Source: an uncultured Bacilli bacterium (GTDB lineage Bacteria; Bacillota_I; Bacilli_A; RF39; UBA660). Taken from it: 49,904 nucleotides of DNA. Shown here piece after piece: positions 39,926 through 47,557 of the stretch. The stretch covers positions 1 to 49,904 of the forward strand of contig CANQXT010000003.1 of assembly GCA_947627915.1 (NCBI GenBank). The letters run 5' to 3'. Below the pieces are notes generated by a model that did not search any database, was not told the origin of the DNA, and worked only from the letters and a program-made list of their open reading frames with translations. How positions within the stretch are numbered: the stretch's first letter is position 1; each line of letters begins with the position of its first letter. The translations under genes were made by a program, and so were the position numbers.

Positions 39926-42742
39926 ATGGATAAAATAGTAATTAGAGGAGCAAGAGAAAATAATTTAAAAAATATTGACTTAGAACTTCCTAAAAATAAA
40001 TTAATCGTTATGACAGGAGTATCAGGTTCTGGAAAAAGTAGTTTAGCTTTCGATACTATTTATGCTGAAGGAGAAAGAAGATATGTGGAAAGTTTATCAG
40101 CATATGCTAGACAATTTATTGGTTCAGGAGATAAACCTGATGTTGATTCTATTGAGGGACTTTCACCAAGTATTTCGATAGATCAAAAGACAACAAATAA
40201 AAATCCAAGATCTACTGTGGGTACAATTACGGAATTATATGATTATTTAAGATTATTATTTGCAAGAATTGGTGTACCATATTGTCCTACCCATAAAATA
40301 CCTATTAAAAGTCAAAGTATTGAAGAAATGACTAATAAAATTTTAGCTATGGAAGAAGGTACTAAAATTGAGATTTTTGCTCCAGTAGTAAGAGGAGAAA
40401 AAGGTACTCATAAAGATTTAATATTAGATTTACAAAGTAAAGGCTATACAAAAATAAAAGTTAATGGGGTTATGTATAACGCTTCAGATGAAATAACTTT
40501 AGAGAAAAATGTTAAAGATGATATTTATGTTTTAGTTGATAAACTTCCTATAAGTGTTGACGAAAGAAGCAGAATATTTGAAGCTTTAGAAGTTAGTTGT
40601 AACTTAGCTAATGGATTAGTTATTATAAGAGTTAATGATGAAGAAGATATTTTAATGAGTGAAAATTATGCTTGTCCTTATTGTAATTTTTCAATTAGTG
40701 ATTTAGAGCCAAGAATGTTTTCGTTTAATTCCCCATATGGAGCATGTGATGATTGTAAGGGACTTGGTACTAAACTTAAAATAAGTGAAGAATTATTAAT
40801 ACCTGATAAAAATAAAAGTATTAATAAAGGAGCAATTATTGCTATTAACTTAGATAATAATATGTATATGAGTAGTTTAAATACAGTTGCTGAACATTAT
40901 CATATTGATTTAGATATACCAGTTAAGGATATGCCAAGAAAAGATTTAGATATTATTTTATATGGTACTAATGATATTATGGATTTTCATTATGTAGCTA
41001 AAAATGGTAGTACTAGAGATACAAAATCTAAATATGAAGGAATAATTAATAATTTAGAAAGAAGGTATTTAGAAACTAATAGTTCTTGGATAAGAGAGTG
41101 GATTGAAGGATTTATGGTAGAATCAACTTGTAATACTTGTCATGGTACTAGATTAAAAGATGAAATTTTAGCTGTTAAAATAAATAAGAAAAATATATAT
41201 GAAATGACAGAAATGGCCATTGATGAATTAAGAGATTTTTTAAAAAATTTAAAATTAACTCATGAAGAAGAAGAAATAAGTAGTTTATTATTAAAAGAAA
41301 TAATCGTTAGATTAGATTTTCTAATTAATGTTGGTTTAAATTATTTAACTTTATCTCGAAGCGCCGCTACTTTATCTGGTGGAGAAGCTCAAAGAATAAG
41401 ACTTGCTACGCAAATAGGTAGTAAATTATCTGGTGTCTTATATGTTTTAGATGAACCATCCATTGGACTTCATCAAAGAGATAATGAAAAATTAATTAAT
41501 TCTTTAAAAGAAATGCGTGATTTAGGAAATACTTTAATAGTTGTGGAACATGATACAGATACAATGCTTGCTGCAGATTATTTAGTAGATATTGGTCCAG
41601 GTGCTGGAGATAAAGGTGGATATGTTGTTGCCTCAGGTACTCCAGAAGAAGTAATGCAAAATGATAATAGTATTACAGGCAGATATTTGTCCGGTAAAGA
41701 AAAAATTGAAATTCCTAAAAAACATCGTAAAGGAAATGGTTTATATTTAGAAGTAAAGGGAGCAAAAGAAAATAATTTAAAAAATATTAATGTTAAATTT
41801 CCATTAAATAAATTTATTTGTGTAACTGGTGTTTCTGGATCAGGTAAAAGTACTTTAATTAATGAAATATTATATAAAACTTTACATAAAGAAATATATA
41901 AATCAAAAGATATACCTGGTAAATGTAAAGAAATTAAAGGTATTGAAAATATAGATAAAGTAGTTAATATTAGTCAAGACGCTATCGGTAGAACACCAAG
42001 AAGTAACCCTGCTACTTATGTTGGGGTATTTGATGATATTAGAGATGTTTTTGCTAATATGAAAGAAGCCAAAGTTCGTGGGTATGATAAGAGTAGATTT
42101 TCATTTAATGTTAAAGGTGGAAGATGTGAAGCTTGCTGGGGTGATGGTGTTAAAAAAATTGAAATGCATTTCTTACCTGATGTATATGTACCTTGTGATG
42201 TATGTAATGGTAAACGTTATAATAAAGAAACATTAGATGTTAAATTTAAAGGTAAAAGCATTGCTGATGTTTTAGATATGCGAGTTAGTGAAGCATTACC
42301 ATTCTTTGAAAATATTCCTAAAGTAAGAGATAAATTACAAGTTATGCATGATGTTGGACTTGATTATATAACATTAGGTCAAGGTGCTCCAACACTATCT
42401 GGTGGAGAAGCTGGTAGAGTAAAACTTGCTAAAGAATTACAAAAGAAAGCAACAGGAAAATCAGTATTTATTCTTGATGAACCAACAACCGGTCTTCATT
42501 CAGCTGATATTAAAAAACTATTAGAAGTTTTAAATAGAATAGTAGATAATGGAGATACAGTTATAGTTATTGAACATAATTTAGATGTTATTAAACAAGC
42601 AGATTATATTATTGACTTAGGTCCTGAAGGTGGTAAATTTGGTGGTGAAGTAATTACAACAGGTACTCCAGAAGAAGTAAGTAAAGTTCCTGAATCTTAT
42701 ACGGGTATGTTTTTAAAGAAAATATTAGAAAAAGATAAATAA
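39926..42742 (+). CDS. uvrA: Excinuclease ABC subunit A
   Basis: MDKIVIRGARENNLKNI, two GVSGSGKS Walker A motifs, LSGGEAQRIRLATQIG and zinc fingers. Start set to the ATG at 39926. Confidence 0.99.
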   Translation: MDKIVIRGARENNLKNIDLELPKNKLIVMTGVSGSGKSSLAFDTIYAEGERRYVESLSAYARQFIGSGDKPDVDSIEGLSPSISIDQKTTNKNPRSTVGTITELYDYLRLLFARIGVPYCPTHKIPIKSQSIEEMTNKILAMEEGTKIEIFAPVVRGEKGTHKDLILDLQSKGYTKIKVNGVMYNASDEITLEKNVKDDIYVLVDKLPISVDERSRIFEALEVSCNLANGLVIIRVNDEEDILMSENYACPYCNFSISDLEPRMFSFNSPYGACDDCKGLGTKLKISEELLIPDKNKSINKGAIIAINLDNNMYMSSLNTVAEHYHIDLDIPVKDMPRKDLDIILYGTNDIMDFHYVAKNGSTRDTKSKYEGIINNLERRYLETNSSWIREWIEGFMVESTCNTCHGTRLKDEILAVKINKKNIYEMTEMAIDELRDFLKNLKLTHEEEEISSLLLKEIIVRLDFLINVGLNYLTLSRSAATLSGGEAQRIRLATQIGSKLSGVLYVLDEPSIGLHQRDNEKLINSLKEMRDLGNTLIVVEHDTDTMLAADYLVDIGPGAGDKGGYVVASGTPEEVMQNDNSITGRYLSGKEKIEIPKKHRKGNGLYLEVKGAKENNLKNINVKFPLNKFICVTGVSGSGKSTLINEILYKTLHKEIYKSKDIPGKCKEIKGIENIDKVVNISQDAIGRTPRSNPATYVGVFDDIRDVFANMKEAKVRGYDKSRFSFNVKGGRCEACWGDGVKKIEMHFLPDVYVPCDVCNGKRYNKETLDVKFKGKSIADVLDMRVSEALPFFENIPKVRDKLQVMHDVGLDYITLGQGAPTLSGGEAGRVKLAKELQKKATGKSVFILDEPTTGLHSADIKKLLEVLNRIVDNGDTVIVIEHNLDVIKQADYIIDLGPEGGKFGGEVITTGTPEEVSKVPESYTGMFLKKILEKDK

Positions 42743-42770
42743 AGTGTATTAAATTGCACTTTATTTTTTT
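42738..42770 (+). terminator. Terminator after uvrA
   Basis: AATAAAGTGT ... GCACTTTATT followed by a T run. Confidence 0.75.
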
Positions 42771-42822
42771 GCATTTTTCAAAAAGTGGGTGCAAAAAGGT
42801 GTAATTAATACTATAATCTAAT

Positions 42823-42977
42823 TAATAAGGAAGAGAAAATTCAAAGTTGGATTTGACTTGAAATTTTTTGAGTTTAGTATTATCATAATTATTGCCCTGA
42901 CTTGGGGCGTTTAGTATTATCGAAAGGAGAAGTTACCGCTTCTCCTTTCACATGCCCTCAAGTTCCTTTCTTTTTTT
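42823..42977 (+). ncRNA. Candidate structured non-coding RNA
   Basis: GC-enriched intergenic block with a perfect 11-bp stem GAAAGGAGAAG/CTTCTCCTTTC, an outer stem GACTTGGGGCGT/ATGCCCTCAAGTT, a duplicated GTTTAGTATTATC and a terminal T run. Promoter-like elements lie upstream. Confidence 0.45.
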
Positions 42978-43096
42978 GCAAATTATTTTATACTTTTTAA
43001 ATTTTGAAGTCAAATTATTTTTCAAATTTTTCTTTTTTTTAAGTTAATTTATTTTACAAGTTTATAAACTATTACCAACATTTTAATTATCAAAAC

Positions 43097-43123
43097 TTGA
43101 CACCGGGGGGGGTATTATATAAT
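43097..43123 (+). promoter_or_regulatory. Consensus sigma-A promoter with a poly-G (G8) tract in a 15-bp spacer; candidate phase-variable promoter
   Basis: TTGACA (43097-43102), CC, G8 (43105-43112), TATTA, TATAAT (43118-43123). Confidence 0.8.
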
Positions 43124-43187
43124 TATCTTATAAAATAGAGAGAAACAAAATAGATAAAAGATATCAACATAAAAGAAAGGGTTAAGA

Positions 43188-43631
43188 ATGAAAAAGATAA
43201 TTATAGGAGTGCTAGTAATAATAGAAATATTTTCTTTGTATATGATGTATCAAATAAATAATAGTAAAAGTTTAAATGAAGTAAGTATAAAAAATAATAA
43301 AATAAATAAAGATGTCTTTGCCGTATATTGGGATGAAAATGGAGATGGAACGTATACAGAATATACACAAACAACATGGCCTAGTTCTGGTTATACATTA
43401 AATTTAATAAAAACAGAATGTATGAATGAAAAAGGAGATAAACTAGAAAATCCAGAAATAACTTTCAATCATGGAACAATAACATTAAGTAATACTGAAA
43501 CAACATATTGTATATTGTATTTTGAAAAATTAAAAGCAAGTATATTACTATACGATAATCAAATAAAAAATAGAACAAGTTGTACAGATATTCAATGTGC
43601 AATAGATGAACTATATAAAGCAAGTTATTAA
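43188..43631 (+). CDS. Small membrane-anchored surface protein, first gene of the CLec operon
   Basis: N-terminal hydrophobic segment; FAVY...C...YCILYFEK domain similar to the N-terminal domain of 1193-3763; C-terminal IQCAIDELY motif. Confidence 0.8.
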   Translation: MKKIIIGVLVIIEIFSLYMMYQINNSKSLNEVSIKNNKINKDVFAVYWDENGDGTYTEYTQTTWPSSGYTLNLIKTECMNEKGDKLENPEITFNHGTITLSNTETTYCILYFEKLKASILLYDNQIKNRTSCTDIQCAIDELYKASY

Positions 43632-43644
43632 AAGGAAGATAGAT

Positions 43645-45114
43645 ATGAAGAAGATAATAAAAGATAACTATCCAATATTGATTGGAATATTAATAGGAAT
43701 AATATCAATAAGTGGAGTATATGCAGCAAGTACAATGATAGAAAGTGATGAAGTAACATATGATAATACAACAAGTCATGGAGATTATACAAATGTACAA
43801 GAATCAATAGATGAATTATATGAGATAAATAAAATACATAAAGATGAATGGCAAGATCCAACATTACAAGCAAGTGGTAATTACCCATTATTAACCGGAG
43901 ATTTAATCCCAGTTGAAATAAAACCAAATGGAGATGTATATTATGCCAATAAACATAGTGAATGGTATAACTATAGTGAAAAGAGATGGGCTAATGCCGT
44001 AATATTAAAAGCAGAGAAAAAAGAAACATATTCAGAAGGGCAAAAGATAAAAGAAGAAGATATAAATGGATATTTTGTCTGGATACCAAGATATAAATAT
44101 CAAGTATGGCATTATAATAGTGATAGTGATGCAATAGATGGAAATACATTAAAAAATGAAAATTATAGTAATTCAACAACGCAAGCATTAGGTAAAGCAA
44201 GATTAATAAATATCGAGTTTGAAAGTAAAAGTACTTCAAAAAGTGAAGCAACTGATAATACCAAAAATGGAGACTGGTTAACCCATCCAGCATTTACATT
44301 AGGAAGTAAAGAATTAAGTGGCATATGGGTAGGAAAGTTTGAAACAGGAAAAGAATCAGATAATGTAATAGTAAAGCCTAATGTAACATCATTTACGAAT
44401 AAAACAGTAAAAGAATTCTTTGAAGCTGGAAAAAAATATAATCAAACATTAGATAGTCATATGATGAAGAATACAGAATGGGGAGCAGTAGCATACTTAT
44501 CACATTCTGAATATGGAATAGGAACAGAAGTAAGAATAAATAATTATGAAGGATATAAAACTGGATATAGTGCAGCAGCAAATACTGATCAAAGTAGTTA
44601 TAATTATAATAGTAATAAAGGAGAATATGGAACTATAGATGATATAACCCAACAATATAATACTCCAACAGGATACTTAGCAAGTACAACTGGAAATATA
44701 ACAGGTGTATATGATATGTCCGGAGGAGCATGGGAATATATGGCAGCTTGTATGGAAAATACACCAAAAGATAGTGGTTTTTCTACAGAAGACTTAGAAA
44801 AAGAAATGAATGCTGGTTATATAGATAAATATCCAAGTGATACTAACTCATATAGTAACAGAATCTTAGGAGATGCAACAGGAGAGATGGGACCATTCTA
44901 TAATTATTATGATAAAGATAATGGTAAACGTTATCATAATGTTTGGTACGCTGACTATTCGGGCTTCGTTGCCTCTTCTTACCCGTGGTTCGGTCGAGGA
45001 GGCGGTTACGACAATGGCGTCTTGGCCGGCCAGTTCGACTTCGGTGGGTACAACGGTGGTGCGAATGGCCGCATTGGGTTTCGCCTCGTCCTTTCACCTG
45101 AAAATAATTCATAA
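43645..45114 (+). CDS. Surface CLec/FGE-sulfatase-fold protein, putative DGR target
   Basis: Start moved to the ATG at 43645, after AAGGAAG. Signal/TM ending GVYA, then VWIPRY, HPAF, WVGKFE, EWGAVAYL, GVYDMSGGAWEY and PWFGRGG...GFRLVL. Confidence 0.88.
   Translation: MKKIIKDNYPILIGILIGIISISGVYAASTMIESDEVTYDNTTSHGDYTNVQESIDELYEINKIHKDEWQDPTLQASGNYPLLTGDLIPVEIKPNGDVYYANKHSEWYNYSEKRWANAVILKAEKKETYSEGQKIKEEDINGYFVWIPRYKYQVWHYNSDSDAIDGNTLKNENYSNSTTQALGKARLINIEFESKSTSKSEATDNTKNGDWLTHPAFTLGSKELSGIWVGKFETGKESDNVIVKPNVTSFTNKTVKEFFEAGKKYNQTLDSHMMKNTEWGAVAYLSHSEYGIGTEVRINNYEGYKTGYSAAANTDQSSYNYNSNKGEYGTIDDITQQYNTPTGYLASTTGNITGVYDMSGGAWEYMAACMENTPKDSGFSTEDLEKEMNAGYIDKYPSDTNSYSNRILGDATGEMGPFYNYYDKDNGKRYHNVWYADYSGFVASSYPWFGRGGGYDNGVLAGQFDFGGYNGGANGRIGFRLVLSPENNS
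44941..45100 (+). other. Putative DGR variable region (VR), with the IMH expected at its 3' end
   Basis: Hand count: 94/160 G+C and 19/160 A, inside an otherwise strongly A-rich gene. Variable codons mostly end in C/T, as expected for codons derived from AAY. Confidence 0.8.
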
Positions 45115-45149
45115 GTTACTTAAATACTAATAGAAAGAAGAATATATAA

Positions 45150-46607
45150 ATGAAGGAAAAAACAAAGAATAAAATAAAACTATTAATAGGAATAATAATA
45201 GGATTAATATTATCAGTAAGTGGAGTATATGCCACAAGTTCAATGATAGAAAGTGAAGAAGTAACTTATGATAATAAAAACAGTGATGGAAAATATAATA
45301 ATGTCCAATCATCAATAGATGAATTATATGAAAGAAGTGGAATACATAAGGAAGAATGGACTGATAAAGAATTAAACGGAAATGATCCAGTAATAACAGG
45401 AGATTTAATCCCAGTTGAAATAAAACCAAATGGAGATGTGTATTATGCAAATAAACATAGTGAATGGTATAACTATAGTGAAAAAAGATGGGCTAATGCT
45501 GTAATATTAAATGAAGGAAAAAAAGAGACATATTCTGTAGGACAAAAAATAAATGAAAATGATATAAATGGATATTTTGTCTGGATACCAAGATATAAAT
45601 ATCAAATATGGCACGCAACAAGCGAAGATGGAACACCAGATGGAAATACATTAATAAATACAAATTATGGTAATTCAACAACACAAGCATTAGGTCAAGC
45701 CAGATTAATAAATATTGAGTTTGAAAGTAAGGATACACCAAAAAGTGAAGCAAAAGCTGAAACTAAAGATGGAGATTGGATAACCCATCCAGCATTTACG
45801 TTAGGAACAAAAGAATTAAGTGGAATATGGGTAGGAAAGTTTGAAACAGGTGGAGATGCAACTAATGTAATAGTAAAACCAAATGAAATATCATGGCGAG
45901 GTGCAAATGTAAAAGCATTCTTTGATGCTGGAAAAAAATATAATCAAACATTAGATAGTCATATGATGAAGAATACGGAATGGGGAGCAGTAGCATACTT
46001 ATCCCATTCTGAATATGGAATAGGAACAGAAGTAAGAATAAATAATAATGAAGAATTTAAAACCGGATATAGTGCCGCAGCTAATACAGATCAAAGTAGT
46101 TATAAAGGAGATACAGGTAAGAGTGATGAAAAAGATAAAACACAACCATATAATACGCCAACCGGATACTTAGCAAGTACAACTGGAAATATATCAGGGG
46201 TGTTTGATATGTCCGGTGGCGCGTATGAATATATGGCAGCTTGTATAGAAAATACTCCAGGAGATAGTAGTTTTTCTACAGAAGACTTAGCAAAAGAAAT
46301 GGATAAAGGCTATATAGATAAATATCCAAGTGATAGTGATACAACAACATATAGTAAAAGAATATTAGGAGATGCCACTGGAGAAATGGGCCCATTCTAT
46401 AGTTATTATGAAAAAGATGGTTCGTTGCATAATCATAGTGCATGGTACGCTGATGATGCATATTTTGCTAACTCTTCTTTTCCATGGTTTTATCGAGGAG
46501 GCTTTAATGGTAATGGAATCTTGGCAAGTCAATTTACTTTTCATAGATACAATGGTATTGCTTACAATTCGCTTACTTTTCGTCTTGTTCTTTCTCCAAC
46601 TAATTAA
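45150..46607 (+). CDS. Second CLec/FGE-fold surface protein (tandem paralogue) with a degenerate VR-like end
   Basis: Long near-identical blocks shared with 43645-45114; GVFDMSGGAYEY and PWFYRGG...TFRLVLSP. Confidence 0.88.
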   Translation: MKEKTKNKIKLLIGIIIGLILSVSGVYATSSMIESEEVTYDNKNSDGKYNNVQSSIDELYERSGIHKEEWTDKELNGNDPVITGDLIPVEIKPNGDVYYANKHSEWYNYSEKRWANAVILNEGKKETYSVGQKINENDINGYFVWIPRYKYQIWHATSEDGTPDGNTLINTNYGNSTTQALGQARLINIEFESKDTPKSEAKAETKDGDWITHPAFTLGTKELSGIWVGKFETGGDATNVIVKPNEISWRGANVKAFFDAGKKYNQTLDSHMMKNTEWGAVAYLSHSEYGIGTEVRINNNEEFKTGYSAAANTDQSSYKGDTGKSDEKDKTQPYNTPTGYLASTTGNISGVFDMSGGAYEYMAACIENTPGDSSFSTEDLAKEMDKGYIDKYPSDSDTTTYSKRILGDATGEMGPFYSYYEKDGSLHNHSAWYADDAYFANSSFPWFYRGGFNGNGILASQFTFHRYNGIAYNSLTFRLVLSPTN

Positions 46608-46646
46608 CTCGTCAACGAAGACGTTAAAATAGTAAAACTTAACCCT

Positions 46647-46674
46647 GAAAGAGAATGACTCTCTTTCTTTTTTT
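46647..46674 (+). terminator. Terminator of the CLec operon
   Basis: GAAAGAGA-atgac-TCTCTTTC followed by T7. Confidence 0.8.
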
Positions 46675-46744
46675 AAAATTAAAATTAGTATTTACGTTAA
46701 AACTATTTTGTTTTATAATTATTTATAGTATAGGAGAATTGATT

Positions 46745-47557
46745 ATGAGTAATATTGCATTTACAATAATGGGTTATGACATAAGATGGTATTCTTTATG
46801 CATATTAGGTGGTATAATAGTAGCGTTATTTTTCTTTATGAGAGAAGGAAGAAGATTTAATTATCCCAAAGAATTTTTATTTAATTTAGCATTCTGGGTT
46901 ATTATTTTTGGTATTATTGGTGCTAGATTATATTATTGTGCTTTTGAATTTGATACATATAAAGATAATTTACTAGATATATTTAAGATATGGGAAGGTG
47001 GTCTTGCGATTCATGGAGGTATAATAGCAGGTTTTATAACAATGGTTGTTTATACCAAAAGATATCAAGTTAGTACTGTTAAAATGATGGATATTACAGC
47101 AGTTCCTTTATTAATAGCTCAAGCAATAGGAAGATGGGGTAATTTCTTTAATAAAGAAGCTTTTGGATCTGCTACTACATATTTACATTTAAAAGAATTA
47201 CACATTCCTGAAAAGATAATTGATGGAATGAAAATAGGTAATGTTTATTATCATCCAACATTCTTTTATGAATCTTTGTATTGTTTAATTGGTTTTATAA
47301 TATTATTAATATTAAGAAGATTTAGATATATTAAGACTGGTCAAATAACATCATTGTATTTAATGTATTATTCTGTAGGTAGATTTTTTATAGAAAAATT
47401 AAGAACAGATTCTTTAATGCTAGGTGGTTTTAAAACAGCACAAATAATATCTATTGTATTATTTGTTATAGGACTCCTTGGATTTATGATAACTAGTAGA
47501 AAAGGTCGTTTTGAAGATTTATATAATGAAGAACAAAATGGTCCAATAAGATTTTAA
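46745..47557 (+). CDS. lgt: Prolipoprotein diacylglyceryl transferase
   Basis: IRWY, GARLYY, IWEGGLAIHGG, QAIGRWGNFFNKEAFG, HPTFFYES and RFFIEKLRTD. ATG at 46745 follows AGGAG. Confidence 0.97.
   Translation: MSNIAFTIMGYDIRWYSLCILGGIIVALFFFMREGRRFNYPKEFLFNLAFWVIIFGIIGARLYYCAFEFDTYKDNLLDIFKIWEGGLAIHGGIIAGFITMVVYTKRYQVSTVKMMDITAVPLLIAQAIGRWGNFFNKEAFGSATTYLHLKELHIPEKIIDGMKIGNVYYHPTFFYESLYCLIGFIILLILRRFRYIKTGQITSLYLMYYSVGRFFIEKLRTDSLMLGGFKTAQIISIVLFVIGLLGFMITSRKGRFEDLYNEEQNGPIRF

Follow-up and report, generated by a model that had tools for sequence, protein, structure and literature searches.

A recurrent poly-G promoter cassette ahead of surface-protein genes in an uncultured gut Bacilli bacterium: a candidate slipped-strand expression switch

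Homopolymer switches in promoter spacers are textbook features of a few pathogens. The porA and tp0126 promoters are described as carrying a poly-G tract between the -35 and -10 hexamers, with an optimum of 17 nt, and shorter porA tracts as lowering or abolishing transcription (PMC7864442). The same source describes tp0126 and the tpr genes of Treponema pallidum as paralogous outer-surface protein genes, each with a poly-G in its promoter or close to it; measurements within isolates gave tract lengths of 7-11, and in the tpr genes, where the tract lies just upstream of the transcription start, eight or fewer G are permissive (PMC7864442). Insertions and deletions in the spacer are described as switching vlp, maa2 and vmm on and off in a further source, which also gives the promoter T tract of vpma as invariant, showing that a homopolymer beside a -10 need not be a switch (PMC2268961). 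Here, we describe a promoter with a G tract in its spacer from an uncultured Bacilli bacterium, the cassette family to which it belongs, and the readings that this family allows.

The stretch of DNA analyzed, hereafter the window, comprises 49,904 nucleotides and is the whole of contig C3 of a genome (G000) of 1,287,956 bases in 90 contigs, with a GC content of 24.4%. Direct reading of positions 43097-43123 on the forward strand gives TTGACA-CC-G8-TATTA-TATAAT, with two perfect hexamers 15 bp apart, precisely as the original prediction had it. That prediction also held that the window contains no other G run of this length, and this is borne out on both strands, which carry no further G or C run of at least seven; both G7 matches in the window fall within the G8 at 43105-43112. 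The elements of the promoter are as follows, in window coordinates.

43072-43096, forward strand: A/T-rich stretch ACCAACATTTTAATTATCAAAAC 5' of the -35 hexamer, part of the repeated cassette and conserved in 34 aligned copies
43097-43102, forward strand: -35 hexamer TTGACA; TTGACA, TTGACT or TTGATT in other species and genera, with the adjoining bases altered
43103-43104, forward strand: CC linker
43105-43112, forward strand: G8 homopolymer in the promoter spacer, candidate slippage site
43113-43117, forward strand: TATTA linker
43118-43123, forward strand: -10 hexamer TATAAT, 15 bp from the -35, near-invariant across species
43121-43126, forward strand: alternative -10-like hexamer AATTAT, a 10/12 match that the G8 state places 18 bp from the -35
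43130-43187, forward strand: putative transcription start (A at 43130), then a 5' untranslated leader that the copies conserve and that includes a purine-rich ribosome-binding stretch

The start at 43130 was placed by its distance from the -10. Upstream of the -35, the A/T-rich stretch may play a role like that of an UP element, and the ATCTTATA sequence directly 3' of the -10 is kept in other species too. The window site in its G8 state has neither an extended -10 (TG) nor an alternative -35 at 17 bp, and an Rfam scan of 42000-47000 returned just two matches, both far under their thresholds. Its hexamers are those expected of sigma-70/sigma-A promoters, close to TTGACA/TATAAT and conserved in relatives; its 15-bp spacer falls outside the 17 ± 1 bp of that class. 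With the spacer type of slipped-strand promoter it shares a homopolymer between the -35 and the -10. Within the window alone such a site is not rare: at least two G7 matches also occurred in 10 of 100 dinucleotide-preserving shuffles of the window, and a scan for consensus promoters found 43 sites where shuffles led us to expect 40.2, and so had no discriminating power. Hexamer matches alone mean little in DNA of 20-30% GC; the site is recognizable as non-random because the cassette recurs throughout the genome.

Across G000, 42 of the 43 G/C runs of at least seven fall in one promoter cassette, AAAACTTGACACC-Gn-TATTATATAATTATCTTATA or a close variant of it, where our own arithmetic from base composition predicts roughly one such run by chance. 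The search for further TTGACA-Gn-TATAAT promoters ahead of paralogous operons, which the original prediction had proposed, was thus strongly positive, with 39 complete copies, defined as those with both hexamers on the contig. Three further copies are broken by contig ends, the start of C83 being the same site as the end of C13. Among the complete copies the tract is G8 in 34, G9 in three, G10 in one and G7 in one, and the spacer measures 15 bp in 30 (the window copy and 29 others), 16 bp in seven, 17 bp in one and 14 bp in one. Alignment of the 34 copies with full flanks defines a cassette of approximately 110 nt that comprises the A/T-rich upstream stretch, the -35, the tract, the -10 and a leader in two main versions, and differences in the length of its core are confined to the G tract. 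When cassettes were sought by their flanks alone, 39 of 40 sites proved to have a pure run of at least seven G, the fortieth being an unrelated AT-rich match; no interrupted tract was found among the cassette copies recovered in this way. The single long run outside the cassette is a C9 at G000:C33:3057-3065, the center of a palindrome (AGATATA-C9-ATATCT), which could act as an internal control for homopolymer error in reads.

Many of the cassettes stand in tandem on one strand, 1.2-3.7 kb apart. At the upstream stretch of 15 of the 34 aligned copies, the window copy not being one of them, an inverted repeat of at least 5 bp is followed by a T run in the manner of a terminator, which suggests that these cassettes begin separate transcription units. 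Tract length was expected to vary, and does so: from 7 to 10 among the paralogs, and with 9 as the usual value in sister species whose flanks are identical. This variation on constant flanks, as seen in slipped-strand systems, is between paralogs and between species rather than at one locus among strains. The assembly itself bears on some of these lengths. Eleven of the 43 runs fall less than 100 nt from a contig end, and three of the five non-G8 copies of G000 less than 70 nt from one, where assemblies are least reliable. The sole G10 copy, with its 17-bp spacer, lies 68 nt from a contig end and heads a cassette on C18 that includes a DGR reverse transcriptase.

In copies that are not broken by a contig end, an ORF of at least 40 aa begins 29-76 nt after the tract. 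Thirty-three of 37 downstream ORFs form one BLAST-linked family with a common hydrophobic N-terminus, and the other four follow unrelated G6 runs. Members of the family share the N-terminal anchor MKKIIIGVLVIIEIFSLYMMYQ and variants of it, beyond which their sequences diverge into varied ectodomains. By these predictions the cassettes head genes or short operons for putative membrane-anchored surface proteins, some of them DGR targets. In a Pfam scan of 12 family members, three matched ALK_LTK_GRD, one Laminin_G_3 and one Glug above the cut-off, one matched DUF6273 below it, and six had no match. PF12810, the ALK/LTK glycine-rich domain that takes its name from animal receptor kinases, was found with E-values of 1e-45 to 5e-51 at G000:C4:35925-37196, C21:16585-17880 and C8:12568-13902, in each case behind a cassette. 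A type IV pilin leader was also considered for the shared N-terminus and dropped: pilins have a glutamate five residues after the glycine, here it falls six residues after, and other subfamilies lack the glycine.

The cassette in the window is followed by three genes, with a stretch related to a DGR template in the second, and a hairpin.

43188-43631, forward strand: gene 1, 147 aa, with the N-terminal hydrophobic anchor MKKIIIGVLVIIEIFSLYMMYQ
43606-45114, forward strand: gene 2, 502 aa, anchored at its N-terminus, with a candidate DGR-target domain at its C-terminus
44947-45094, forward strand: 3' stretch of gene 2 that resembles a VR, with 84.5% identity to the TR at G000:C18:18483-18630
45150-46607, forward strand: gene 3, 485 aa, paralogous to gene 2 and degenerate in its VR region
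46647-46674, forward strand: terminator-like hairpin (46647-46667; 8 pairs, 3 of them G-C) followed by the T run TTTTTTT

Gene 1 has no match in Pfam, NCBIfam or Atlas; its paralogs of 146-147 aa precede DGR-target genes elsewhere in G000, including the one in the reverse-transcriptase cassette. The FGE-sulfatase match (PF03781) of gene 2 scores 20.2 bits, below the cut-off of 23.3 bits, and that of gene 3 also falls just under the cut-off. A motif, I/V-Q-x-[AS]-I-D-E-L-Y, ends the 147-aa protein (43588-43625) and appears again just past the membrane anchor of both large paralogs (43793-43830 and 45301-45338); it may serve in docking or assembly, linking the small protein to the large ones. 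Since the hairpin ends the three-gene unit, the lgt and thioredoxin-reductase-like genes further downstream are probably separate from it. The listed lgt frame starts at 46655, inside this hairpin, and a promoter-like TTTACG-17-TATAAT lies at 46691-46719; the true lgt start is probably further downstream than 46655.

The DNA upstream of the cassette has features of its own. An inverted repeat of 72% complementarity (42836-42867 and 42999-43030) surrounds approximately 130 nt with two hairpins, and Rfam gives this stretch (42836-43030) a weak L20-leader match, below threshold. Positions 42850-43028 recur on C89 at 85% identity, and in two other species (G045:C115 and G021:C33) stretches that include them, with 86-87% identity, stand directly before cassettes. 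Further upstream, the motif CAAAAAGTGGGTGCAAAAAGGTGTAA occurs once after the uvrA terminator (42785-42812), and in three tandem copies at the same place in another genome (locus L077, G005:C12).

To judge what a 15-bp spacer means in this genome, exact TTGACA/TATAAT pairs that lack a G tract were counted across G000. Their spacers peak at 17 bp (17 pairs), with 10 pairs at 18 bp, five at 16 bp, and one each at 15 bp and 14 bp. The usual rule of 17 ± 1 bp thus holds in G000, and the window copy is two base pairs off the optimum. The original prediction had taken 17 bp as the optimal spacer, as these counts favor (17 pairs against one at 15 bp), and had cast G8 as a low or OFF state and G10 as an ON state at 17 bp. 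Of the latter pair of claims, the G10 state with its 17-bp spacer does exist, as the C18 copy. That G8 is OFF was an assumption, and it is weakened by G8 being the commonest length, usually with a 16-bp spacer in other species, and by the AATTAT hexamer 18 bp from the -35. Because 16 bp normally still works, and because of this second hexamer, OFF may be lower; the commonest state falls one or two steps short of the optimum, which describes it better than OFF does.

The prediction further called this a DGR-target operon. G000 has three reverse-transcriptase genes and one complete DGR, which lies outside the window at G000:C18:12000-20890 (locus L157). There the order is the G10 cassette promoter, a 146-aa gene, a 485-aa target with VR, the TR, a 125-aa protein with MutS domain I, bAvd and the reverse transcriptase, such that the RVT_1 gene, the accessory bAvd and the TR are all on C18. 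Further small frames with MutS domain I adjoin a reverse transcriptase on C82. Several other loci, including gene 2 of the window, match the TR of C18 with differences biased toward adenines. In the cognate VR on C18, 11 of 12 mismatches are at template adenines; in the VR-like stretch of gene 2, 17 of 23 are, six lie elsewhere, and the last 23 nt are identical to the TR. The six non-adenine differences make gene 2 a diverged, possibly former, DGR target. In gene 3 the corresponding region (46446-46566) has 68.6% identity to the TR, with 12 of 38 mismatches at template adenines. The description as a DGR-target operon thus holds in part: the 3' end of gene 2 is VR-like, gene 3 is degenerate, and the reverse transcriptase is on another contig. 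G10 was also considered as a marker of DGR cassettes and set aside, as the G10 copy of a sister species (G024) heads a homolog of a Glug-motif protein that is not a DGR target. A search of the open literature, judged from its listings, turned up no connection between DGR targets and homopolymer or slipped-strand promoters.

To place the cassette among relatives, both the exact motif and looser forms of it were sought. The exact motif is present in three of 41 relatives sampled, G000 included. In a public collection of species it matched 10 stretches, nine of them from four MAGs labeled "uncultured Bacilli bacterium"; the tenth, from a "Lachnospiraceae" MAG, was rejected as a G6 site of no relation to the cassette. 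When the pattern was relaxed to at least seven G, no more than five bases and then TATWWTAWAAT, it matched 20 of the 42 genomes of the genus, and three genomes (G050, G023 and G010) have cassettes outside this pattern, with other bases between tract and -10. A sample of the order gave matches in four of 201 genomes and three of 98 genera, both counts including G000. Related cassettes are thus known from at least 20 of the genus's 42 genomes, and from two further genera of the family. The linkers seen 5' and 3' of the tract are CC/TATTA, CTC/TATAT, none/TAATATTT, T/TGTATTA and none/TAGTATTA, and the forms of the promoter include the following.

TTGATT-CTC-G8-TATAT-TATAAT: spacer of 16 bp
TTGACT-G8-TAATATTT-TATAAT: spacer of 16 bp
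TTGACT-C-G9-AATATTT-TATAAT: spacer of 17 bp
TTGACA-ATC-G8-TATTT-TATAAT: spacer of 16 bp
TTGACT-TC-G8-TAATA-TATACT: spacer of 15 bp
T, then G8 or G9, then (T)GTATTA, in a genome of another genus (G088): spacer of 16 or 17 bp
G8-TAGTATTA, in a genome of another genus (G140): spacer of 16 bp; 18 bp in one G9 copy

Spacers across species are thus 15-16 bp at G8 and 16-17 bp at G9, with 18 bp in the single G9 copy of G140. These comparisons indicate that the parts held constant across species and genera are the hexamers and the pure G run, and that the place of the run inside the spacer varies. G8 is the commonest length in the related cassettes of the lineages examined, whatever the total spacer: among the matches listed, 54 forward-strand sites in eight other species, all from genomes with complete listings, comprise 43 G8, six G7 and five G9, reverse-strand matches being excluded from this sizing because they do not resolve length. 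Exceptions occur among sister species. With flanks identical to those of the window copy (TTGACACC on the left, TATTATATAAT on the right), one sister species (G008) has G9 in all three of its copies, another (G024) has G8, G9, G9 and G10, and two further sister MAGs each have a G9 copy. Length variants also occur well inside contigs, e.g. in G004:C17, G013:C36, G021:C7 and G000:C21. Two G9 tracts arose by a substitution beside the tract that leaves the spacer at 15 bp (locus L069 in G023 and L076 in G055), which hints that spacer length is held constant. Finally, the 3' flank of uvrA has no G run of at least six in 11 related species, and the operon is absent there; the family therefore turns over by locus.

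Promoters of similar architecture were also sought in metagenome contigs. The cassette-specific pattern matched none of them; a general pattern matched 76, judged unrelated by their flanks and G+C content with the possible exception of L143. In unrelated contigs of 37-45% GC the G tract stands immediately 5' of TATAATATAAT. Four of the matches (L120, L138, L144 and L152) are one locus in different assemblies, with G8, G9, G7 and G11, respectively; the 100-nt upstream flank is identical in the first three, and L152 is broken 6 nt upstream of the tract. Another two, L108 and L116, have common flanks and G9 and G10. The same architecture thus varies in length between assemblies in two unrelated lineages, and poly-G runs adjoining a -10 may be widespread in gut bacteria.

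We favor the reading, with a probability of roughly 0.6, that the window site is a slipped-strand expression switch of the porA, tp0126 or vlp kind, multiplied into a family. It would be a sigma-A (sigma-70 type) promoter with a G8 in its spacer, one of about forty such cassettes. Replication slippage in the G tract would alter the distance between -35 and -10, which ranges from 14 to 17 bp among the copies; spacer length would set the output of each cassette independently; and the population would carry a shifting subset of surface proteins, whose ectodomains would include DGR-diversified lectin-fold proteins. The window copy, at 15 bp, should be weak; a gain of one or two G would take its spacer to 16 or 17 bp. 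The downstream genes, as predicted, appear to be of the kind usually placed under such switches, which speaks for this reading. Also in its favor are the perfect hexamers on either side of the G8, the recurrence of the cassette, length differences confined to a tract that is kept pure, the differing lengths on identical flanks in sister species, the persistence of the tract amid changing linkers, the preference of G000 for 17 bp, the switches described in other organisms and the two metagenome lineages whose tracts vary between assemblies. We infer that the tract slips at a useful rate in populations, that the hexamers are a working promoter and that spacer length sets expression.

An alternative that we consider unlikely, and still a serious one, is that the G tract is an element of fixed length, whether as the site of a dedicated regulator or as a structural part of the spacer, through which the cassettes would be under coordinated control; the rare G7, G9 and G10 copies would then be mildly harmful, neutral or errors. 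G000 has both MutS and MutL, so that slippage, unlike that in mycoplasmas, does not escape repair, and G8, at 34 of 39 copies here and 43 of 54 elsewhere, is spread more narrowly than free drift would have it, which could reflect selection for a fixed G8. Together, these repair proteins and the prevalence of G8 keep this alternative alive, and it also draws on G8 being commonest in all lineages examined whatever the spacer, on the invariable purity of the tract, on the two G9 copies made by substitution with the spacer unchanged, on the nearness of three of the five length variants of G000 to contig ends, and on the conservation of ATCTTATA after the -10, as might be expected of an operator. 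Uniformity within a genome combined with difference between species would also fit gene conversion among cassettes, which would explain the G8 mode without selection on length. A fixed length is difficult to reconcile with the sister species in which 9 is usual on identical flanks, with the variants inside contigs of several genomes, and with the intact genes that copies of other lengths head. The offsets of the tract from both hexamers vary by lineage, which is hard to square with a protein that contacts polymerase from a fixed place, and we know of no regulator that reads a bare G8.

It is far less probable that the cassette is a passively copied repeat, either the 5' end of a duplicating gene family or the remnant of a mobile element, with hexamers that are not a working promoter and a tract without influence on expression. 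In DNA this rich in AT, matches to the promoter consensus do not exceed chance, the assemblies break at the cassette as they do at repeats, and the absence of the operon from the uvrA flank of 11 related species indicates a family that moves or turns over, all of which a passive repeat would explain. Yet a pure G8 would decay quickly at 24% GC if it were not under selection, and no decayed copy was found; the hexamers and the tract are precisely what stays constant across species and genera while linkers and flanks change; and the cassette always stands 29-76 nt before a start codon, on the coding strand. Sequencing or assembly artefact, as the source of the tract or of its differences in length, we regard as barely credible: homopolymers are error-prone and some variants do lie at contig ends, but the same architecture recurs across at least 20 species and three genera whose genomes were assembled independently, and variants are also found deep inside contigs. 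Even combined, a non-promoter repeat and an artefact seem very improbable.

Should the tracts be slippage switches, the presence of a complete DGR allows a further and more doubtful proposal, a two-tier variation in which about forty slipping poly-G promoters would choose among surface cassettes, the DGR would rewrite the binding tips of a subset, and hypermutation would itself be tuned by slippage at the reverse-transcriptase cassette. Of the copies in this assembly, that one alone has the optimal 17-bp spacer.

A single promoter cassette has come to occupy about forty loci of a commensal genome of 1.3 Mb, kept across the genus and in two other genera, and tied to DGR targets. If the switch is real, it would provide a natural experiment, in the form of forty promoters that differ almost only in tract length, for which one metatranscriptome would show how spacer and output are related. 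It would also show surface variation in uncultured gut bacteria with small genomes, presumably directed against phages, host immunity or partner cells, and would give a first handle on the regulation of DGR targets and possibly of the DGR itself. The mechanism is a known one; what is new is the scale and uniformity of the cassette, its host among uncultured gut Bacilli with small genomes, and its link with DGR targets.

Compared with the described systems, the window site resembles porA of Neisseria meningitidis in having a G homopolymer in the sigma-70-type spacer of a surface-protein gene. porA is a single locus of a Gram-negative pathogen, whereas here about forty copies are found in an uncultured gut bacterium of the Bacilli. 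In T. pallidum, the tpr tract adjoins the transcription start, far fewer loci are concerned and no DGR is involved, in contrast to the roughly forty spacer tracts here. Mycoplasma hyorhinis vlp, together with M. arthritidis maa2 and M. mycoides vmm, is alike in being a family of genes whose individual promoters each carry a repeat between -35 and -10. In the vlp genes, too, divergent surface domains follow a 5' region and leader that are conserved, which would be the same cassette logic; their tract is poly-A and their products are lipoproteins. The present family differs in its poly-G tract, its several-fold larger size and its MutS and MutL, and since the N-terminus MKKIIIGVLVIIEIFSLYMMYQ lacks the cysteine of a lipobox, it is vlp-like in its working and not a member of the vlp family. 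Lastly, G000 resembles DGRs with remote targets in combining a target, a TR, a small MutS-domain-I protein, bAvd and a reverse transcriptase with remote loci that match the TR.
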